Source: Escherichia phage Ec_Makalu_003
Sequence record: MN882349.1
Length of the DNA: 64,000 nt
Strand: one strand, 5' to 3'
Shown here: positions 35,800 to 60,858 of the stretch, one piece after another
How the letters are laid out: every line of letters starts with the position of its first letter
Numbering within the stretch: position 1 is the stretch's first letter
Position numbers and translations under genes: made by a program
Notes under the pieces: generated by a model
Told to the model about the DNA's origin: nothing
What the model saw: only the letters and a program-made list of their open reading frames with translations
Database searches by the model: none

Positions 35800-36276
35800 T
35801 TAATCATGACCGTGGTTGGCAAGATCCGCTCGTGTCTTATCTTTGTGATTTCCTACGTCAAAGACACGATAGCCGTTTTCTCGGAGAACTTTAATCACTT
35901 CTGGGTTATCCTCAAAGACTCCCACCACTTCATCTTTATCAAATGATTTAATTACCTCTAATTTGATGTGATAGTCTTTACGGGAATCGGTACGGCCTCT
36001 CATAAAGATTTTATCAAAACACACCCCGTTAGAAATTAACCAATCAATTGTTTCCATGTAAGCATGTGAACTTCGTCCGGTGAGGATGTAAATCAAATGC
36101 CCGTTGTCGGAAAGAGCATTAATAACACGAATTACATCGTAAATGGGGGAATCTCCCCCACATGCCTTGTTATATTCGATCCATGACTCGACTTTATCAA
36201 GATTTTCGGTTGGCATCTTTGCTAGTCGATGCGTTGGATCTGTGATCGTAAAATCTAAATCGACAAAATATATCAT
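35800..36276 (-). CDS. HAD-superfamily phosphatase (putative nucleotidase)
   Basis: N-terminal FVDLDFTI (DxDxT) motif; 158 aa directly downstream of nrdB. Confidence 0.6.
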   Translation of the reverse strand: MIYFVDLDFTITDPTHRLAKMPTENLDKVESWIEYNKACGGDSPIYDVIRVINALSDNGHLIYILTGRSSHAYMETIDWLISNGVCFDKIFMRGRTDSRKDYHIKLEVIKSFDKDEVVGVFEDNPEVIKVLRENGYRVFDVGNHKDKTRADLANHGHD

Positions 36277-37433
36277 AGATATTTCCCGAATCGGTTGTAG
36301 TCATCGTCTGTTAAATCGGTATTAACCTGAGATACCAGATACATAATCTCTACTTCCTGCGCTGCATTCTGTACTTCGTCAGAGTTCAACCATTTACGCA
36401 TCCACGGTAAAGGATGACGACGAACACTAAACGGGCTTTTCAGTCCGGCAGCACGCATACGGGAATCTGCCAGGTATTCTACATAGGTTTTCAGAATTTC
36501 CGGTGACAGGTTAGGAATTGCCCCCATTGCGAATAAGTGATCTACCCATTCTTTTTCTTGCTCGACAACATCCAGAAAGATTTTCGTTGCTTCGTCTTCA
36601 AGTTCTTCCGCAATCTGTTTCCACTCATCACCATCAGCCCCCGTTTGCCATTGACGAATAATGTATTGTGTGCCTTTTAGGTGAAGTTGTTCGTCACGCG
36701 CAATAAATTTCATGATCTTCGCGTTACCTTCCAGTAAACCACGTTCGGCAAAGCTGAAAGTACATGCAAAGGACACATAAAAACGGATTGCTTCCAAAGC
36801 ATTAACGCAGTGTGCACACAGATAAATCGACGCCATCAGATCTCGTTTTGTATCTTCAAAAAATCTTCTTGCATCATCTAATGCTGTCTGGTCGTCTCGT
36901 TCTTCCCAATAGCGGAGATCTTCTTTTGCATTCTCATACTTACGAATCCAATAAAGAACATCGTCATAGTATTGTCCGATAGATTCCGCTCGCTTCATGA
37001 TCGCAGGGTTATCGATGATCTGGTCAAACTCACTAGCCGGATCAATGAAACAGTTACGCATAATGTGAGTATAACTGCGGCTATGAATTGTCTCGCTGAA
37101 TGTCCAGGTTTGTAACCATGTATCGAGAGTTGGATCAGATACAATTGGACCAAATGCTGCGGACGGTGCGCGACCTTGAATAGAATCAAGTAATGTCTGA
37201 TACTTCAAGTTTTCTGTAAAGAAACGTTTTTCAACATCGCCCATATTCAGATATTGAATGCGGTCGGTTGCAAGTGAAATCTCTTCTGGACGCCAGAAAA
37301 ATGACAGAGATTTTTCAATTAATTCTTCAAATACTTGATGACGCTGAATGTCATAGCGAGCAATCCCTAAATCACTACCCAGAAACATTGGTTCGTTCAT
37401 AATATCAACATGTTCGCGGTTAAATACGCTCAT
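36273..37433 (-). CDS. nrdB: ribonucleotide reductase small subunit
   Basis: 386 aa, class Ia beta-subunit fold signatures (FFWRPEE, tyrosyl radical region, C-terminal tail); uninterrupted. Confidence 0.92.
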   Translation of the reverse strand: MSVFNREHVDIMNEPMFLGSDLGIARYDIQRHQVFEELIEKSLSFFWRPEEISLATDRIQYLNMGDVEKRFFTENLKYQTLLDSIQGRAPSAAFGPIVSDPTLDTWLQTWTFSETIHSRSYTHIMRNCFIDPASEFDQIIDNPAIMKRAESIGQYYDDVLYWIRKYENAKEDLRYWEERDDQTALDDARRFFEDTKRDLMASIYLCAHCVNALEAIRFYVSFACTFSFAERGLLEGNAKIMKFIARDEQLHLKGTQYIIRQWQTGADGDEWKQIAEELEDEATKIFLDVVEQEKEWVDHLFAMGAIPNLSPEILKTYVEYLADSRMRAAGLKSPFSVRRHPLPWMRKWLNSDEVQNAAQEVEIMYLVSQVNTDLTDDDYNRFGKYL

Positions 37434-37447
37434 TAATTCACCTCACT

Positions 37448-37616
37448 ATCACTTTTTAATACAAAAGAACTTAGTATTTCTGTTTATGTCTCTATCCTGT
37501 TGCAATTCCTGCATGGCTTCAAAACAACTTTGATGTGATGAAAACTCTACGCTGGTAACAGTTCCTTTATTATATACCCCGACACTAACGGAAAGCAATA
37601 ACCATAATGTAGCCAT
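37448..37616 (-). pseudogene. frameshifted paralog of the 37616-37789 gene
   Basis: Starts MATLWLLLSVSVG.. like its neighbour, hits a stop after 41 codons; the -1 frame continues with RDINRNTKFFCIKK matching the neighbour's C-terminus. Confidence 0.45.
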
Positions 37617-37789
37617 TAGTTCACCTTCTGCTTTTCAATGCAATACAGATTCATAAAGCGTTTATTGTCTTCGCGGATAATCTCGCGAGCTTTAACGCAA
37701 TCCTGCTTTGTTGCAAATTCAATGCTTGACATATTTCCGTAATTATACATTGAATTGCTTATTGCAATCAATAACCATACAGTAGCCAT
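37616..37789 (-). CDS. small membrane-anchored protein (57 aa)
   Basis: MATVWLLIAISNS hydrophobic N-terminus; TAATG stop-start overlaps on both sides. Confidence 0.5.
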   Translation of the reverse strand: MATVWLLIAISNSMYNYGNMSSIEFATKQDCVKAREIIREDNKRFMNLYCIEKQKVN

Positions 37790-37987: not shown

Positions 37988-38016
37988 AGTATAGCGGGGA
38001 TTTCTCCCCGCGTCAA
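37988..38016 (-). promoter_or_regulatory. early promoter cassette (TTGACG, palindromic spacer CGGGGAGAAATCCCCGC, TATACT)
   Basis: Minus-strand elements just downstream of the nrdA stop. Confidence 0.6.
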
Positions 38017-38024
38017 CACTTATT

Positions 38025-40268
38025 TTACAGTTTGCAAGATGAACATTCGCTAGCGTCTTCCGTACCATCAGCACCATCACGCACGTTAGCGTAATACAGT
38101 GTCTTGAGGCCGTAATATTGAGCAAACAGCATATCATCTAACACATCAGCAATATCGACTTTACCAGTCTTATAAGTGCTTGGATCATAGGATGTATTGG
38201 AACTGATCGCCTGATCTACAAACTTCTGCATGATCGCTGCCAGTGTCAGATAAGGTTTGTTACCCTTCTTGATCAGTGTCCAAAGCAGGTCAATAACATC
38301 AGCATTATTCTCTACGTTCGGAATAACCTGATTAAATTGCCCTTCTTTCGATCCTTTAACCGATACAATCCCGCGAGGCGGTTCTATTCCATTGGTGCTA
38401 TTAGATACCTGAGAAGACGACTCACAAGGCATCAGCGCCGATAGTGTACTGTTACGAATGCCATATTTTTTCAGGTCTTCGCGCAGTTCTTCCCAATCCA
38501 TTTCATACACCGGGTCAACCAGTTCATCTACTGTCTTTTTGTACCAGTCAATAGGAAGTTCACCGCGACCATAACGTGTTTCGTGCATCAGTTCGCAAGC
38601 GCCCTTCTCTTTTGCTAGCTGCACACTAGCTTTAATCAGAGCATATTGCAAGCGTTCAAACGTTTTATGCGTAAACTCGTTAGCGTCTTCATATGTGAAG
38701 AAATTATCCGCCAGATATGATGCAAAGTTAGTCACACCAACACCCAGAGAGCGACGTTTTTTGGCTGTCAGTGCTTGTTCTACAGGATAATCCTGGTAAT
38801 CTAACAAGTTGTCAAGCGCACGCACCATAACCATAGCGATCCGCTCTACTTCTTCCATATTTTCGATATCGAAATTACCTAAAACATATGCTGCCAAAGT
38901 ACACAGAGCAATTTCGGAGTCATCATGCCCCATTGGTTTAGTAGGCAGTGCAATTTCACAACACAGGTTAGATTGTTTAATCGGTGCTACATTACGAATA
39001 AACGCCCCGTGATTGTTCATGTTGTCTGTGAACGCTGGATAGATTCGACCAGTGTTAAAACGTTCAATTGCCACCGCTAAAAACAGGTCTTCGGCTTTAA
39101 CACGAGTTTTACGAACACTCGGATCTTTTTCCAGTTTTTCATAAAGCTGGCGGAATCCTTCCTCATCTCGGAAGTACAGATCCCACAACAAGCCACCCGC
39201 AACATCTGGACTAAACAGAGTAATGTAATCACGTTTAAGGAATCGCTCTACCATCAGGTTATTAATCTGTACGCCGTAATCAAGATGACGAATGCGGTTA
39301 TCTTCTACCCCTTTGTTGTTCTTCAACACAATAAGACTTTCAAACTCTAAATGCCACATTGGGTAATAGAGAGTCGCCGCCCCGCCACGAATACCGCCTT
39401 GTGAGCATGACTTAACGGCAGTCTGAAAATGCTTCCAGAATGGGATAACGCCAGTATGACGAACTTCACCATGCCCGATCTTAGATCCTTCCGCGCGAAT
39501 CATACCAGCATTGATACCGATACCAGCACGCTTACTAATATACTTGATGATTGCATTTGCTGTTTCGTTGATGCCCTGCAATGAGTCATCACTTTCAATC
39601 ACCACACACGAACTAAATTGTCGTGTTGGAGTACGCACACCAGCCATAATCGGAGTAGGCAGAGAAATTTGCTTATTCGCAACAGCATTATAAAAATCAA
39701 TCACATGTTCGAGTCGATTTTCTGTCTCTTCTTGATGTAAACACATACCGATCAGCATATACGCAAATTGCGGTGTTTCAATGATTTTCTTAGTGCTGCG
39801 ATCCTGAACAAGATATTTCTCTTTTAACTGCATCGCACCAGCATAGGTCATTTTAAAGTCAAGTTTATGGTCGATGAATTTCTCCAGATATTCCACTTCT
39901 TCACGGGAATACTTTTGCAGAATTTCGCGATCATATTTTCCGGTTGCAATATTACGCTCAATATGGCTGTAAAAATCAATAGGTTGGAATTGACCGTATA
40001 CTGATTTACGAAGCGCGAACATTGCAAGGTTACTTGCTACATATTGATAATCAGGCGTTTCTACCGTGATGTTATCTGCGGCGACCTTAATCAATACTTT
40101 CTGGATATCGTTGGTAGACATACCTTCTGTCAGAAGTGGTTCAACCATATCAAACAATTCATATGGATCAACGTTATGACCTTCGGCTGCCGCTTCCAGA
40201 ATTTTCATTACTTTTTCTTTTTCAAACGGAACAGTCAGACCGGAAGACTTAACAACATTTTTAATCAT
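38025..40268 (-). CDS. nrdA: ribonucleotide reductase large subunit
   Basis: 747 aa, ATP-cone N-terminus and class Ia catalytic signatures (NLCCEI, C-terminal CxxC tail). Confidence 0.95.
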   Translation of the reverse strand: MIKNVVKSSGLTVPFEKEKVMKILEAAAEGHNVDPYELFDMVEPLLTEGMSTNDIQKVLIKVAADNITVETPDYQYVASNLAMFALRKSVYGQFQPIDFYSHIERNIATGKYDREILQKYSREEVEYLEKFIDHKLDFKMTYAGAMQLKEKYLVQDRSTKKIIETPQFAYMLIGMCLHQEETENRLEHVIDFYNAVANKQISLPTPIMAGVRTPTRQFSSCVVIESDDSLQGINETANAIIKYISKRAGIGINAGMIRAEGSKIGHGEVRHTGVIPFWKHFQTAVKSCSQGGIRGGAATLYYPMWHLEFESLIVLKNNKGVEDNRIRHLDYGVQINNLMVERFLKRDYITLFSPDVAGGLLWDLYFRDEEGFRQLYEKLEKDPSVRKTRVKAEDLFLAVAIERFNTGRIYPAFTDNMNNHGAFIRNVAPIKQSNLCCEIALPTKPMGHDDSEIALCTLAAYVLGNFDIENMEEVERIAMVMVRALDNLLDYQDYPVEQALTAKKRRSLGVGVTNFASYLADNFFTYEDANEFTHKTFERLQYALIKASVQLAKEKGACELMHETRYGRGELPIDWYKKTVDELVDPVYEMDWEELREDLKKYGIRNSTLSALMPCESSSQVSNSTNGIEPPRGIVSVKGSKEGQFNQVIPNVENNADVIDLLWTLIKKGNKPYLTLAAIMQKFVDQAISSNTSYDPSTYKTGKVDIADVLDDMLFAQYYGLKTLYYANVRDGADGTEDASECSSCKL

Positions 40269-40279
40269 ATTACCTCACT

Positions 40280-40582
40280 TCATATATCAAGCGTATTTTC
40301 TGGAGTATCGCCGAAAACTCTATTAACGAGATCCGCCAATACTTCACCGTGGCATTTCTTAGGGTAGCAAGTACAACCTAAGCGCATATGTCTTAATACT
40401 TCTAAATGCGCCCGTGTTATCTCACCATTTCGAATCTTATTATACAACCACTCTTTGTATAATGCAATAGCTTTCTCTCGTCCGTATTCTTTGGCGGTGT
40501 ATGGATTTCCCCACATAGTACCACGCTGAATATTAACATCAAAATCGCTATTGTATTTGTTTACAACGCGGCATATTTTCAT
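40280..40582 (-). CDS. DUF4326-like small protein
   Basis: 100 aa, MWGNPYT and CTCYPKKCHGEVL motifs. Confidence 0.5.
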   Translation of the reverse strand: MKICRVVNKYNSDFDVNIQRGTMWGNPYTAKEYGREKAIALYKEWLYNKIRNGEITRAHLEVLRHMRLGCTCYPKKCHGEVLADLVNRVFGDTPENTLDI

Positions 40583-40618
40583 TTGATACTCCTTGCGGGG
40601 ATTCCTCCCCGCAATTGT

Positions 40619-41851
40619 TTATACTGCCATTTGAGCGGTGATCGCTGGATGGCTTTGATAGTTGTGAATTTTAAAGTCTTTCGGAGTTTTTGTCAATACC
40701 TCATCTAAAGATTTAAATTCCGGCAACTCAATTGTTGGTTTATCAAACGGAACACGGCTTAACTGTTCCATCACTTGGTCAAAGTGATTTTTGTAAATGT
40801 GAGTATCTCCGCCGGAGAAAATCAGTTCTCCTACTTCGAGATCACACATTTTCGCTATGATGTGAGTTAACAGCGCATAGCTGGCGACGTTAAAGGGCAA
40901 ACCCAAAAAGCTGTCTACGCTTCGCTGAAACCACATACAAGACAGTTTACCCTCATTGACATAGAATTGCACGAACGGATGACATACACCTAATACAGCA
41001 TTATGTGTTCCTTGTACGTTCCATGAGTCAATGATGATACGTCGATCCGTTGGATTGTTTTTAATTTGTTCAATCACGTTTTGTAACTGGTCTTCCCAAA
41101 TCTTCGGGCGATAGACATATTCTTCATCGTCTTTAGTGCTCGATGTGTCTATGTCCATACTAGCAAAGATCGTGGTATCCGGTGCTAAAATGTCACCGCC
41201 TAGATAATCACTATCAAGCAGATAACCGAAATAACCATCATCTACCCATTCCTGGAATCCCCACAAGCAATATGCATCATTAACAAAATTAGATTGAGTC
41301 TTCCAGTGGTCCGCTACTAAGAATTGATTATATTCAGAATCAAACTCTTCATAACGCATACCACGCCAGATAGCACATAAACGCTCTTCTGTGTCATTGT
41401 TTGGCGTAAAGTCTTCTACCCACGGGTGTTTAAATGTATGTGTATATTTGCTCTTAACGCGCTTAATTTTGATTTCACCGTGTGGATGAATCGGTTTGCG
41501 TCGCCACGCCATACCATACATATTGCCGACATTATAACCATTGAATCGCAAGGGATTCTTTTCTTTCATATCAAGACAGTTGCCGCGCCAAATATCAAAT
41601 GCTTCCTCGTCAAACTTTCCGCGTGTAATTTCCTGTAAGCGACGGCGGTCAAGTGATCCCTCCATAAACCATAGCAATTCGCCAATTACAGAGGCTGTAG
41701 CCATCTTTTTAGTGGTCAGTAATGGGAAACCCTTGCTTAAATCAATTCGCATCTCTGTGCCGAATTTAGAGAGCGTACCTACCCCCGTGCGGTCTTCACG
41801 AGGCCAGCCATTATCAAGAACATCACGCAATAGTTTCAAATATTCTTTCAT
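40619..41851 (-). CDS. td: thymidylate synthase with a large in-frame insertion
   Basis: DRTGVGT, catalytic CHPF, SFLGLPFNVASYALLTHIIAKMCDLEVGE, C-terminal PKDFKIHNYQSHPAITAQMAV match T4 Td; about 128 extra residues between YGMAWRR and WEDQLQNV. Confidence 0.85.
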   Translation of the reverse strand: MKEYLKLLRDVLDNGWPREDRTGVGTLSKFGTEMRIDLSKGFPLLTTKKMATASVIGELLWFMEGSLDRRRLQEITRGKFDEEAFDIWRGNCLDMKEKNPLRFNGYNVGNMYGMAWRRKPIHPHGEIKIKRVKSKYTHTFKHPWVEDFTPNNDTEERLCAIWRGMRYEEFDSEYNQFLVADHWKTQSNFVNDAYCLWGFQEWVDDGYFGYLLDSDYLGGDILAPDTTIFASMDIDTSSTKDDEEYVYRPKIWEDQLQNVIEQIKNNPTDRRIIIDSWNVQGTHNAVLGVCHPFVQFYVNEGKLSCMWFQRSVDSFLGLPFNVASYALLTHIIAKMCDLEVGELIFSGGDTHIYKNHFDQVMEQLSRVPFDKPTIELPEFKSLDEVLTKTPKDFKIHNYQSHPAITAQMAV

Positions 41852-42185: not shown

Positions 42186-42755
42186 TTACGCCTTCTTACG
42201 TTCTAAAATTTGTTCGCTGATCAGGTAATTATCAAGGAAGTAATTATGTTCTTCTTTGGTTACAAAGTCAAAATACAATTCCTGAATCATTTCCTTAGAG
42301 ATACCAACATCATATTCAAATGGATCGTTGACCCCTGATCGTTGAACATACGTTAACACAATACGGTCCGCAAAGTCAACCGCTTTTTCAATCAGGGAAG
42401 GTCCGCCGATAACACTTACCAAACCTTGCGTTTTCTCCAGGACTTTTAACAGATCCTTTAATTCAATTCCAGTATACACATTAGGCTGGTCGCCGTTTTT
42501 GGCTTTCGGTGTCGGCTTGCTGGCATCGGTACTAATAACCACATTAAGACGACCTTCCAGTGCTTTAGGGAGACTTTCAAAGGTATTACGTCCCATTACA
42601 ACCGCCGCAAGATCAACATCTCCCATAGTGCGCATTTTAAAGTTTTCCATGTCCTTTTTGATTGGACGACCCCACGGTAAACCGCCTTTAAAACCAAAAG
42701 CCCAATTTTCATCTGACATTTTAGTGTCACCAATCGCAAATACACATTGAATCAT
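42186..42755 (-). CDS. frd: dihydrofolate reductase
   Basis: 189 aa, GLPWG motif and overall DHFR pattern, T4 synteny. Confidence 0.9.
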   Translation of the reverse strand: MIQCVFAIGDTKMSDENWAFGFKGGLPWGRPIKKDMENFKMRTMGDVDLAAVVMGRNTFESLPKALEGRLNVVISTDASKPTPKAKNGDQPNVYTGIELKDLLKVLEKTQGLVSVIGGPSLIEKAVDFADRIVLTYVQRSGVNDPFEYDVGISKEMIQELYFDFVTKEEHNYFLDNYLISEQILERKKA

Positions 42756-43604: not shown

Positions 43605-44573
43605 TTACATCCCTAACAGAGCGTCAAGATCATCCAGATCAGAAGCGGAGGAAGTACCGCCACCCAGGTCCAGAGATGCCATCAGGTCATCAGCGGAAGA
43701 ATCTAACGCCGTGCTAGCTGCGTTAATACCAACTACAGTGCTAGCTGCGGTAGTACCAGCGTCGAATGCATTCATCTGTGCGTCAAAATCATCAAGCTGG
43801 CTGTTAATCGCTGCCGCAGCACTGGAAGCCGCAGCACCAGCTACCATAGAAACGCCCATAGTTTTCTTAAATTTGGTTTCCAGTTCATCGAACGGTTTAA
43901 ACTGGCTAGGCGCTACAATCTCACTCAGATCAACCATGTTTTCCATCAGATATTTCTGATATGCTTCGTCTTCAATTTTCGGAAGCTGTGATTGCTGCAT
44001 GAAACGAGAATCATCATAGTTCTGGTGTTTATCAACCTTCTTAGCTTTCAGGAGGAAGTTAGCACCGGAGAACACACAAGTTACATCTACCGGAACTTCG
44101 CCCATGTCGGTATTCACGTTAACCATCGCAACGATCTTATCATAAATTTTCTGACCGAAGCGGAATTTAAATACCTTACCTTCGTTTTCTGGTGCTTGAG
44201 GATCTTTCAGTACCAGAATGTTTGCGTAGTAAGACGCTTTACGCTTAATCAGTTGCCATTCGGTTTTATCGGTATTGTACAAATCTTTTTCGTTAATATA
44301 TTTGCACACAGGGCAAGAATCAAAATCACCGTGGGTGCTGGAGCAGTTTTCCCAATACCATTTTCCATTAACTTTGAAGGAATGGTTTACCAGTTTCACA
44401 ATCGGCAGACCGTCTTCTGTCTTAGACGGCAGGAAGCGAATCAGGGCTTCACCGTTACCTGCTGCATCAGTCTTAATCTTCCACTCTTTCGGGTCTTCTT
44501 TGGAGAAACCGTTGCCACCTTTCAGTGCGGCCAGTTGAGCTTGCAGTTTGGAAGAATCTTGGCGTTTAAACAT
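43605..44573 (-). CDS. 32: single-stranded DNA-binding protein gp32
   Basis: MFKRQ N-terminus, LIRFLPSK, zinc-binding region, acidic C-terminal tail as in T4 gp32. Confidence 0.92.
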
Positions 44574-44609
44574 ATTCACTATTCCTTCTTTTGATTAATT
44601 TACGAGACT

Positions 44610-44637: not shown

Positions 44638-45314
44638 CTATTTGTTTCGGCTTTTAATTGAGATATTTCTTTACACTCTTTAACGACTTTAACAAATAAT
44701 GCTCTTGCTTTTGCGGCGTCAATAACAAGTAGTTTCTTGTACGCCTTCATTTTAACACTATAAGTTTGCCAAATCAAGTCTTTGGCTACCTTGTCGTGTT
44801 CGTCGATTATATTTAGAAAGCTATCTAACAACATAAACGACTCAAACGATATAATCCGATTTTGCAGTAGTTTAAAGATACCGCTAGTTTCGGTTGCGGG
44901 ATTGTATGTAATTAGCTCTTTAAGAGTAACCCCGCGTTTCTCGGAGAAGTATACCAGACTTTTAACGTCATCGTCAAATCTTGTTGCTGCATCGGTTATC
45001 TTTCCTATGTATTCCATATAAAAGCCGTATGCGTCAACATCAGTGATTTCACCTACCCATGCATCGGTATTAGCTACCAGATTGCTTAGGAATAGGAAGT
45101 ATAATTCTCTTAGATTGTACTTTTCCGCTAATTTTGCGAAATAATACTTATCTCTGCGTTTATTGAATGCGGCATCAGACAACCGCATCCTCCAATTGTA
45201 TTTTACGCAATCATAACGCCCGTTCATATGAGCTTTCATCATGCAATATAACATATACACAGATTTAGCATTAATTCGCATATCTGGATCTGGAGGAAGA
45301 CGGTTTCTGATCAT
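44634..45314 (-). CDS. 59: helicase loader gp59
   Basis: 226 aa alignable to T4 gp59 (YNWRMRLSDAAFNKRRDKYYF, FLSNLVAN). Confidence 0.9.
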   Translation of the reverse strand: MIRNRLPPDPDMRINAKSVYMLYCMMKAHMNGRYDCVKYNWRMRLSDAAFNKRRDKYYFAKLAEKYNLRELYFLFLSNLVANTDAWVGEITDVDAYGFYMEYIGKITDAATRFDDDVKSLVYFSEKRGVTLKELITYNPATETSGIFKLLQNRIISFESFMLLDSFLNIIDEHDKVAKDLIWQTYSVKMKAYKKLLVIDAAKARALFVKVVKECKEISQLKAETNS

Positions 45315-51409: not shown

Positions 51410-51414
51410 TTAAA

Positions 51415-51430
51415 GGGGGCGAAAGCCCCC
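51415..51430 (+). other. GC-rich hairpin between genes 34 and 35
   Basis: GGGGGC-GAAA-GCCCCC with no following T-run; possible RNA stability or processing element. Confidence 0.4.
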
Positions 51431-51442
51431 TATGGGGTTATT

Positions 51443-58296: not shown

Positions 58297-58542
58297 TTGG
58301 CGCATAGAAGCCCCTGAATCGCATTTTGACGCTGTATGATGAAAACAGGTAGCGTACCAGTCATCGGCTTGTTTGTCTTCGTCAGAAAACGCGTAATTTC
58401 GTTGTATGCCGTTTTCTACTTTGACCAGTGCAATAGCTGTTTCTGGAAGATCAATTAATCTGACAAAATCACCATCTTCCCACTCTACACGAGCAATATC
58501 ATAGCCCATCTCAAAGTATACAATCGCTTGTTCTAGTTTCAT
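58294..58542 (-). CDS. hypothetical protein (82 aa)
   Basis: ORF with RBS; no recognisable AsiA similarity. Confidence 0.5.
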   Translation of the reverse strand: MKLEQAIVYFEMGYDIARVEWEDGDFVRLIDLPETAIALVKVENGIQRNYAFSDEDKQADDWYATCFHHTASKCDSGASMRQ

Positions 58543-60099: not shown

Positions 60100-60858
60100 T
60101 TACTTGCAAACGTATTGATCTACATCAATTGCGCCACCGAATGTAGGATGACGTTTTTCAAATCGAATAGTTCCGTCGTTTGGTTCGAAAACGGAGTATT
60201 CATATAGATCTTTCTTGCCAACATTCTTATAAAACCCGCCTTTAGTCATAACGGTTTCTTGTACGTTTGCTTTGTGTACATTGTATTCATCAATGTACAC
60301 AAAATCAACCATCTTCCCATTTTTAATAGTTACTTTAAGATCCCCTGGCTGGTTTCCATATTTTGCATACAGTGGAGATTCTTTAATTTTGGTGGAAATT
60401 CCATCTTTCATACTCCACTCATAACGAACGGTGCATTGATAGGTAAAAGTTTCGACCTTCGGTTCTTCCACCACTTTTGCTTCCTGTTTCGGTTGTTCTT
60501 CTTCAACCTTCGCAGAAGTCTCTGAATCGCTTTCTGACGCTGTTTCTTCTTTGGGTAATACATTCATCAAGTTTTGGATTTGAGCGTTGTATACAGCCTC
60601 AAGTGGCTGAATCTGCCCTATATTGATCATTGTATCACGAACAGTTTTATTCCAGTTGCGTTGCTCTTGTTTCAGAGACGGATCAATCTTAACAGCCTTA
60701 ACATATACTTCATGAAGTTTAGAATCAAGTGCGGAGATTGACTCGTTAGCACAAATAAACTTCTCTGATTTGGTGGTAGCCTTAGTGCAATCAAAGGACG
60801 CAGCATTAGCACCGATGGCAGTAGCAGAAAGAAAGATAGCAGCGATAATGTTTTTCAT
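60100..60858 (-). CDS. secreted DUF1311 (LprI-like lysozyme inhibitor fold) protein
   Basis: Signal peptide MKNIIAAIFLSATAIGANA; FDCTKA...EKFICANE...LDSKLHEVY...QRNWNK matches the DUF1311 pattern; 252 aa. Confidence 0.6.
   Translation of the reverse strand: MKNIIAAIFLSATAIGANAASFDCTKATTKSEKFICANESISALDSKLHEVYVKAVKIDPSLKQEQRNWNKTVRDTMINIGQIQPLEAVYNAQIQNLMNVLPKEETASESDSETSAKVEEEQPKQEAKVVEEPKVETFTYQCTVRYEWSMKDGISTKIKESPLYAKYGNQPGDLKVTIKNGKMVDFVYIDEYNVHKANVQETVMTKGGFYKNVGKKDLYEYSVFEPNDGTIRFEKRHPTFGGAIDVDQYVCK

Follow-up and report, generated by a model that had tools for sequence, protein, structure and literature searches.

A T4 nrdA.1 ortholog behind a promoter-less PeSL-type hairpin in the td–nrdA region of a Krischvirus genome

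We conclude, with moderate confidence, that the 100-aa ORF between td and nrdA in Escherichia phage Ec_Makalu_003 is an ortholog of T4 nrdA.1, and that it sits behind a promoter-less hairpin of the PeSL (promoter-early stem-loop) type, which would be read through by transcription and act on the sense RNA as an intercistronic stability or processing element. Most likely, the hairpin is either such an element or a weak attenuator, a role at the RNA level that we infer entirely from the sequence. The window referred to in the following is the whole 64,000-nt stretch of record MN882349.1 that was analyzed.

The DUF4326 gene and its setting

The genome in the window is that of a Krischvirus, an RB49/phi1-like coliphage of the T4 type. 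The 500 nt around the locus are 97.8–99.4% identical to six Krischvirus genomes, Ec_Makalu_002, Ec_Makalu_001, SSG23, SFHK24, E26 and LF73P4. Every gene in this part of the window is on the minus strand, and in the order of transcription the locus comprises gene 32 (43605–44579), frd (42186–42755), a 98-aa ORF, td (40619–41851), the 100-aa ORF (40280–40582), nrdA (38025–40268), several small ORFs, and nrdB (36273–37433). The td product is a 410-aa thymidylate synthase (Pfam PF00303, E = 1.1e-84, with matches to ThyA structures in the PDB), and nrdA, encoding the large subunit of ribonucleotide reductase, was identified from the ORF list and the annotation of the near-identical Ec_Makalu_001. 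The sequence-only reading had described the 100-aa gene as lying upstream of td; since all of these genes are on the minus strand, it is in fact downstream of td and upstream of nrdA. A spacer of 11 nt, AGUGAGGUAAU (40269–40279, minus strand), separates its stop codon from the nrdA AUG and contains the nrdA Shine–Dalgarno (SD) sequence.

Two other features of the region were observed. Td carries an insertion of ~145 aa (residues ~83–253 of Td) at the "small domain" site, where the flanking positions align with residues 82 and 110 of E. coli ThyA, and no Pfam or PHROG match of its own was found for this insertion. The Td of phi1, at 406 aa, is also long, as are those of two of the three metagenomic relatives, at 412 and 401 aa. 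Between nrdA and nrdB are two tandem paralogous ORFs on the minus strand, 37449–37616 (55 aa) and 37616–37789 (57 aa), with the N-termini MATLWLLLSVS... and MATVWLLIAIS..., which probably encode small membrane or secreted proteins.

The 100-aa ORF is present on the minus strand at the length first proposed, and its assignment to DUF4326, made in the sequence-only reading from two signature motifs, was borne out by Pfam, where it matched PF14216 with E = 6.5e-23 and 81.6 bits against a cut-off of 25. The alignment spans profile positions 1–81 of 82, and all 51 of the aligned homologs match PF14216 as well. Both motifs are present, W24-G-N-P27 and C70-T-C72-Y-P74-K-K-C77-H78; residues G25, N26, C70, C72, P74, C77 and H78 are invariant among the 51 sequences. 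T4 NrdA.1 is 63% identical to the protein over 92 aa (E = 2e-42). The slot between td and nrdA is likewise occupied by a DUF4326 gene in T4, where the order is td - nrdA.2 - nrdA.1 - nrdA, and in Jiaodavirus KP01 and Lazarusvirus DP45, where the gene is downstream of td and immediately upstream of nrdA. The order td-DUF4326-nrdA was also found in uncultured metagenomic relatives (L009–L013). Two of these relatives have a td product of 401–412 aa, and their DUF4326 proteins share 79% and 67% identity with the window protein; in a third, with the same gene order and td called in two pieces, the identity is 70%. Taken together, the Pfam match, the identity to T4 NrdA.1 and the shared position indicate that the 100-aa ORF is, as judged by homology and synteny, the Krischvirus ortholog of T4 nrdA.1. 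The ORF annotated as a "hypothetical protein" in the six Krischvirus genomes could thus be named as an nrdA.1/DUF4326 homolog.

By tblastn, homologs were found in 2,083 phage records, and the PHROG entry for the family (PHROG 464) reads "unknown function". One lead is that DUF4326 is a widespread phage domain (~2,000 phage records) that stands beside td and nrdA throughout the Straboviridae. In four contexts outside that family (N4-like, Kuttervirus, Pamexvirus and Thalassavirus), no link between DUF4326 and ribonucleotide reductase genes was found. The "NrdA-like" product names in some records stem from the PHROG label. Searches of the PDB by sequence, with either the single protein or a profile as query, returned no relatives. 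A confident AlphaFold2 model built from the 51 sequences (pLDDT 88, pTM 0.80) has a strand at residues 67–70, followed by the Cys-rich loop and a helix at 78–90, and 10 of the 51 homologs gave weak Pfam matches to DUF488-N3a. A RapZ-C-DUF488-DUF4326 clade was reportedly defined by Burroughs & Aravind in 2023. Catalytic cysteine activity on phosphate or sugar-phosphate substrates has been predicted (PMC9503650). The model and the DUF488-N3a matches fit the assignment by the Aravind group weakly. We consider it probable that the protein belongs to the RapZ-C/DUF488/DUF4326 group as a small Cys/His enzyme or ligand-binding domain, the substrate of which would be a sugar-phosphate or derived from a nucleotide.

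The gene is present at the td–nrdA locus in only 6 of 58 Krischvirus records, and 51 of the 58 have a 69-nt td–nrdA spacer instead. A profile HMM made from the 51 homologs gave a single match in the window (E = 8e-50), and a search of the complete phi1 genome with it found no DUF4326 gene (best E = 1.4). The nrdA.1 gene is therefore dispensable in Krischvirus. In phi1, the spacer reads hairpin-AAT ATG GAG GAT AAA CTT GTT CCT GCT AAA ATA TGA AGTGAGGTAAT ATG(nrdA). The "AAA ATA TG" in this sequence corresponds to codons 2 to 4 (K-I-C) of the window gene, and "ATA TGA AGTGAGG" corresponds to the end of that gene (last codon and stop) together with the nrdA SD. The junction ATATGAAGTGAGGTAATATG is kept in genomes that do not have the gene. 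The spacer contains a 10-codon mini-ORF, MEDKLVPAKI* (L002 2570–2638, minus strand), which is the same in 51 Krischvirus records and ends on the same TGA, 11 nt ahead of the nrdA AUG. The mini-ORF appears to join the beginning of nrdA.1 directly to the stop codon of the gene: eight residues precede the conserved (R/K)-(L/I)-C start in T4 NrdA.1 and between 4 and 32 in five other homologs, and the extension in phi1 is also eight residues, equal to that of T4 and within the range of the homologs. By this comparison, the 69-nt spacer looks like a deletion scar between two ATATG microhomologies. An intact ancestor of the phi1 scar was not found in a metagenome scan, which gave two more phi1-type junctions and 32 unrelated chance matches, and a pattern search of IMG/VR for further junction variants returned only two phi1-type contigs.

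In two of the metagenomic relatives, L009 (3317–6306) and L013 (3308–6315), an HNH/NUMOD-type endonuclease gene interrupts nrdA. In L012 (1711–3000), td is called as two pieces, of 186 and 94 aa, on either side of a 33-aa ORF. These breaks look like intron or homing-endonuclease insertions, which do not occur in the window.

A stem-loop between td and nrdA.1

The gap between td and the DUF4326 gene is exactly 36 nt long (40583–40618) and reads UAA-ACAA-UUGCGGGGA-GGAA-UCCCCGCAA-GGAGUAUCAA-AUG on the minus strand. Four nucleotides past the td stop codon, a stem-loop begins (40593–40614, minus strand), in which the core GCGGGGA GGAA TCCCCGC extends to a 9-bp stem, UUGCGGGGA/UCCCCGCAA, capped by a tetraloop of the GNRA type on the sense strand. 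The predicted fold has an energy of -17 kcal/mol (z = -5.06), equaled by none of 200 shuffled sequences, and in the ensemble fold the pairing probability of the stem is 0.85–1.0 (5' arm). The GCGGGGA/GGAA/CCCGC hairpin that had been noticed in this gap is thus present, and the remark that it has no T-run is also correct: on the coding strand, no U-run follows the hairpin, the tail being GGAGUAUCAA, and the terminator scan lists no minus-strand site here. An Rfam scan of 37–44 kb (E ≤ 1) gave no match at the hairpin.

The AAGGAG that follows (40594–40589), previously taken for the ribosome binding site of td, belongs to the DUF4326 gene and is located 6 nt before its AUG at 40582. The translation initiation region of this gene, AAGGAG UAUCAA A(UG) (40582–40594, minus strand; GGAGUAUCAAA), follows the stereotyped form of early genes in this phage, GGAGnATCAAA-ATG. 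On the minus strand of the window there are 13 copies of GGAGAATCAAA and two of GGAGTATCAAA, each immediately ahead of an ATG, and the start region behind the hairpin, GGAGTATCAAATG, resembles the 13 copies of GGAGAATCAAA(n)ATG. The ensemble fold pairs the two A residues of AAGGAG; probabilities of being unpaired are 0.77–0.97 for the SD's G residues and 0.78–0.94 for the AUG. A sigma-70-like site, TTGACA-17-TAAAAT (40668–40696, minus strand), occupies part of the 3' end of the td gene, 54 nt ahead of the hairpin. It matches the consensus at 11 of 12 positions and is identical in phi1, and we regard it as a candidate promoter for nrdA.1-nrdA. From the hairpin to the start of nrdA, no promoter-like site matches at 9 or more of 12 positions.

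PeSL elements are described at ~50 per genome in RB49 and phi1 (Arbiol et al. 2010, PMC2839356; Comeau et al. 2014, PMC4122927). In each of them, a stop codon surrounded by AT-rich sequence is combined with sigma-70 boxes close to consensus and with a stem-loop, and the SD and ATG follow (PMC2839356, PMC4122927); the published consensus of the stem-loop, or SLS, is G(n)-loop-C(n) (PMC4122927). In the window, we found 19 GC-rich hairpin loci, compared to 1.2 ± 1.1 in Markov simulations, and near-consensus promoters numbered 29 on the minus strand and one on the plus strand, with 2.6 expected for both strands. GTTGAC-AGGGGATCGGCGATCCCCT-ATACT...GGAGAATCAAACATG is an example of a PeSL in the window, and a canonical one after nrdA (37988–38016, minus strand; stem-loop 37994–38011) reads TTGACG-[GCGGGGA-GAAA-TCCCCGC]-TATACT. 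The core stem of the latter, GCGGGGA/TCCCCGC, is identical to that of the td-proximal hairpin, and the start region that follows the td-proximal hairpin is the same as at the 3' ends of PeSLs. The td-proximal stem, which is flanked by ACAA and GGAGTATCAA, has neither a -35 nor a -10 box beside it or overlapping it. Since the stem and the stereotyped start region are shared and the promoter boxes are missing, the hairpin is a promoter-less member of the G-run/loop/C-run stem-loop family that makes up the SLS of PeSL elements.

A hairpin follows td in all Krischvirus variants examined with the exception of one metagenomic relative, L012, which has neither gap nor hairpin after td. In addition to the window type, UUGCGGGGA-GGAA-UCCCCGCAA, three other hairpins occupy this site: GGGGGC-GAAA-GCCCCC in phi1-type genomes, where the gene is absent, AAGGGGC-GAAA-GCCCCUU in L009, and AGCGGGGU-UGACAAG-ACCCCGCU in L013. 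The occurrence of four different sequences at one position after td, including in genomes without the gene, points to selection for the structure. The hairpin is kept without the gene, and the structure is thus tied to the td/nrdA boundary and not to the DUF4326 gene. In L013 (2965–3003), the loop of the td/DUF4326 hairpin contains a TTGACA, and a TAAAAT 18 nt downstream overlaps the DUF4326 ATG. A promoter formed by these boxes would skip the DUF4326 start and could serve nrdA only.

The strand on which the hairpin acts was judged from the loops. All six GC hairpins with 4-nt loops in the window have a GNRA loop on the strand of the local genes, and one of them is located between genes 34 and 35, which are on the plus strand. 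Across the complete phi1 genome there are 19 hairpins of this kind, of which 8 have a sense-strand GNRA loop and 3 a sense-strand UUCG loop; antisense GNRA loops were not found among the 19, and no listed sense loop is CGAA, the complement of UUCG. The number expected by chance is about 0.9. Because the loop, unlike a perfect stem, differs between the strands, its orientation favors a role of the sense RNA. The G-rich 5' arm was rejected as evidence for the strand, since a perfect stem is a G-run followed by a C-run on both strands. An A-run is located ahead of all four hairpin variants, which makes a T-run on the opposite strand.

The hairpins of phi1 fall into three classes: UUCG hairpins with U-runs, GNRA hairpins inside PeSL promoters, and "naked" GNRA hairpins between a stop codon and the next start. 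The UUCG hairpins with U-runs are classical terminators; in all three (44962–44981, 58424–58445 and 140877–140896, minus strand), the U-run is followed by a new TTGACA promoter. In most cases, no U-run follows the GNRA hairpins, and the two tetraloop classes seem to serve different jobs. The "naked" sites in phi1 are td/nrdA, gene 34/35 and gene 30/ORF212. Hairpins of this class lack both promoter boxes and a U-tract, begin 0–5 nt past the stop codon, and are followed directly by the next start region. Genes 34 and 35, which are late tail-fibre genes, are adjacent on the same strand with a gap of 34 nt and are presumably co-transcribed. The hairpin between them, GGGGGC-GAAA-GCCCCC followed by ATATGG (window 51414–51431, plus strand), is identical over 16 nt to the td/nrdA hairpin of phi1, with similar flanks (phi1 148711–148726, 136856–136871). 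This identity suggests that stem-loops may have been copied or exchanged between early and late regions.

Likely role of the hairpin

According to the model that we favor, a very stable, GNRA-capped intercistronic structure would form on the sense RNA. Transcription would have to read through it, because the hairpin has no U-tract and nrdA lacks a promoter-like site downstream of it. The hairpin would mark the boundary between the td and the nrdA.1-nrdA segments of the mRNA, and could block 3'->5' exonucleases following an endonucleolytic cleavage, for example of the RegB type at the adjacent GGAG. The RegB nuclease of T4 cuts GG/AG in the start regions of early genes, with strong sites of the form GGAGRAYARAA (PMC3014915). 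The window sequence GGAGUAUCAAA matches this consensus at 9 of 11 positions and the common GGAGAAUCAAA at 10 of 11. A regB gene is annotated in phi1; the lack of any GGAG in the L009 variant speaks against such processing. If RegB cut here, it would leave a td segment ending in the GNRA hairpin and an inactivated nrdA.1 start region. The hairpin would dampen read-through partially at most, without full termination, and would not couple translation of the downstream gene to that of td.

Two alternative functions concern termination. The hairpin might be a sense-strand terminator or strong attenuator that, like a PeSL, insulates nrdA.1-nrdA from frd-td transcription. It is placed like a terminator, directly past a stop codon, and the PeSL211/210 stem-loop (AGGGGATCGGTGATCCCCT, no U-run), which is no more stable than the window hairpin, was reported to reduce lacZ expression by itself as strongly as rrnB T1 (PMC2839356). 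We still consider this function unlikely, since the hairpin has no U-tract and no promoter-like site for nrdA downstream of it, and the sole strong candidate promoter (40696–40668) is upstream, so that its own transcripts would be terminated, too. Moreover, canonical PeSL stem-loops lie within or upstream of the promoter, and the phi1-type hairpin is also found between the presumably co-transcribed genes 34 and 35. The earlier conclusion that the hairpin is not a terminator was reasonable with respect to the missing U-tract and the lack of a downstream promoter for nrdA, but its "no T-run" argument is weak in light of PeSL211/210. Because that stem-loop reduced lacZ to the same extent as rrnB T1 without a U-run, partial attenuation by the hairpin is possible. 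Intrinsic termination on the plus strand, halting antisense transcription from the nrdA side into td, is a very unlikely function, even though the stem is followed by TTGTTTATAC on that strand, where it is the only site with 9 pairs in the scan (listed as the hairpin plus TTGTTTAT), and the other variants have better T-runs (phi1 TTTTGTTTAT, L009 TTTTTATT, L013 TTTTTTGTT). A plus-strand terminator is also annotated in MN894885 (Ec_Makalu_001; 136199–136225) and in OX001802 (TB34; 60586–60608). However, the plus strand from 16.3 to 47.6 kb contains neither genes nor the late-promoter motif TATAAATA, the only nearby sigma-70-like site on the plus strand is a 9/12 match, and the tetraloops of the family are GNRA or UUCG on the sense strand only, with none of the 19 phi1 hairpins having GNRA on the antisense strand. 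The plus-strand terminator in GenBank is probably an artefact of terminator-prediction software, and what some records show as a "terminator" on the wrong strand makes more sense as a PeSL-family stem-loop of the sense strand.

A translational element would either couple termination on td to initiation on nrdA.1, as the sequence-only reading had offered, or regulate access to the SD. The stem starts 4 nt past the td stop codon, so that a terminating ribosome must melt it, and it ends at the SD, with both A residues of AAGGAG paired. On the other hand, stop and start are 36 nt apart, the gene has its own consensus SD at a 6-nt spacing, the SD G residues and the AUG are mostly unpaired (0.77–0.97), and the position of the hairpin is kept in phi1-type genomes that have no full ORF behind it. 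Coupling to td is thus unlikely, given the distance, the -17 kcal/mol hairpin and a strong, largely unpaired SD of the gene's own, and we rate a translational element as the least probable of the functions discussed here. A likelier place for coupling would be the 11-nt junction between nrdA.1 and nrdA, where it is possible because the spacer carries the nrdA SD. It is also highly improbable, in our judgment, that the hairpin has no function of its own and is the remnant of a PeSL, or a scar left by recombination, that travels with the nrdA.1 cassette. It does resemble a PeSL stripped of its -35 and -10 boxes, PeSLs have been proposed as recombination sites beside variable genes, and nrdA.1 is a presence/absence polymorphism; yet four equally stable hairpins of different sequence are found at one site in diverged lineages, including genomes without the gene, and the sense-strand GNRA loop has been maintained.

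Extending the preferred reading, that of a sense-RNA stability or processing element, to the "naked" GNRA G/C hairpins as a group is more tentative. We think it possible, but doubtful, that they form a distinct class of intercistronic RNA element in Krischvirus, which, together with an adjacent GGAG (RegB-type) site, would determine how stable the upstream segment of a polycistronic mRNA is relative to the downstream one. If so, the element would be one that is kept even where the nrdA.1 ORF has been deleted. As a second lead, promoter-less GNRA hairpins between genes that seem to be co-transcribed could be used for studying segmental mRNA stability in T4-type phages. The importance of the locus otherwise goes little beyond annotation, and it contains nothing that would surprise a T4 specialist.

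Comparison with known systems

The window gene is of an already-known type, T4 nrdA.1/DUF4326, and is an ordinary accessory gene. T4 nrdA.1 (NP_049846, hypothetical protein) has the same DUF4326/PHROG 464 domain, shares the conserved residues R20, G25-N26, H59, C70-x-C72 and C77-H78, and is likewise located between td and nrdA. The window protein differs in lacking the 8-aa N-terminal extension of T4 NrdA.1, and its gene is not separated from td by an nrdA.2 as in T4. Whereas T4 nrdA.1 overlaps the upstream gene and nrdA, the window gene has its own SD behind a hairpin and is 11 nt away from nrdA.

Similarly, the hairpin belongs to a class of stem-loops that is abundant in this phage group and has already been described. 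The sequence-only reading had recognized neither the T4 ortholog nor this family. Like PeSL cassettes, it consists of a G-run, a loop and a C-run after a stop codon, followed by an SD and a start, and it adjoins a gene that varies between close relatives (6 of 58). However, the promoter boxes of a PeSL flank or overlap the stem, while the nearest sigma-70-like site in the window is 54 nt upstream, in td. Unlike the stem of a PeSL cassette, the window stem would therefore sit inside the transcript of the td-internal candidate promoter. The ends of the indel at this locus are also marked by the ATATG microhomology, and not by two PeSLs.

Intercistronic hairpins that stabilize mRNA are found in the malE-malF REP element of E. 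coli and in the puf operon of Rhodobacter. The window element is a single short GNRA hairpin and not a REP repeat, but like the REP and puf hairpins it is a stable stem-loop without a U-tract that separates apparently co-transcribed genes and follows immediately on the stop codon of the first.
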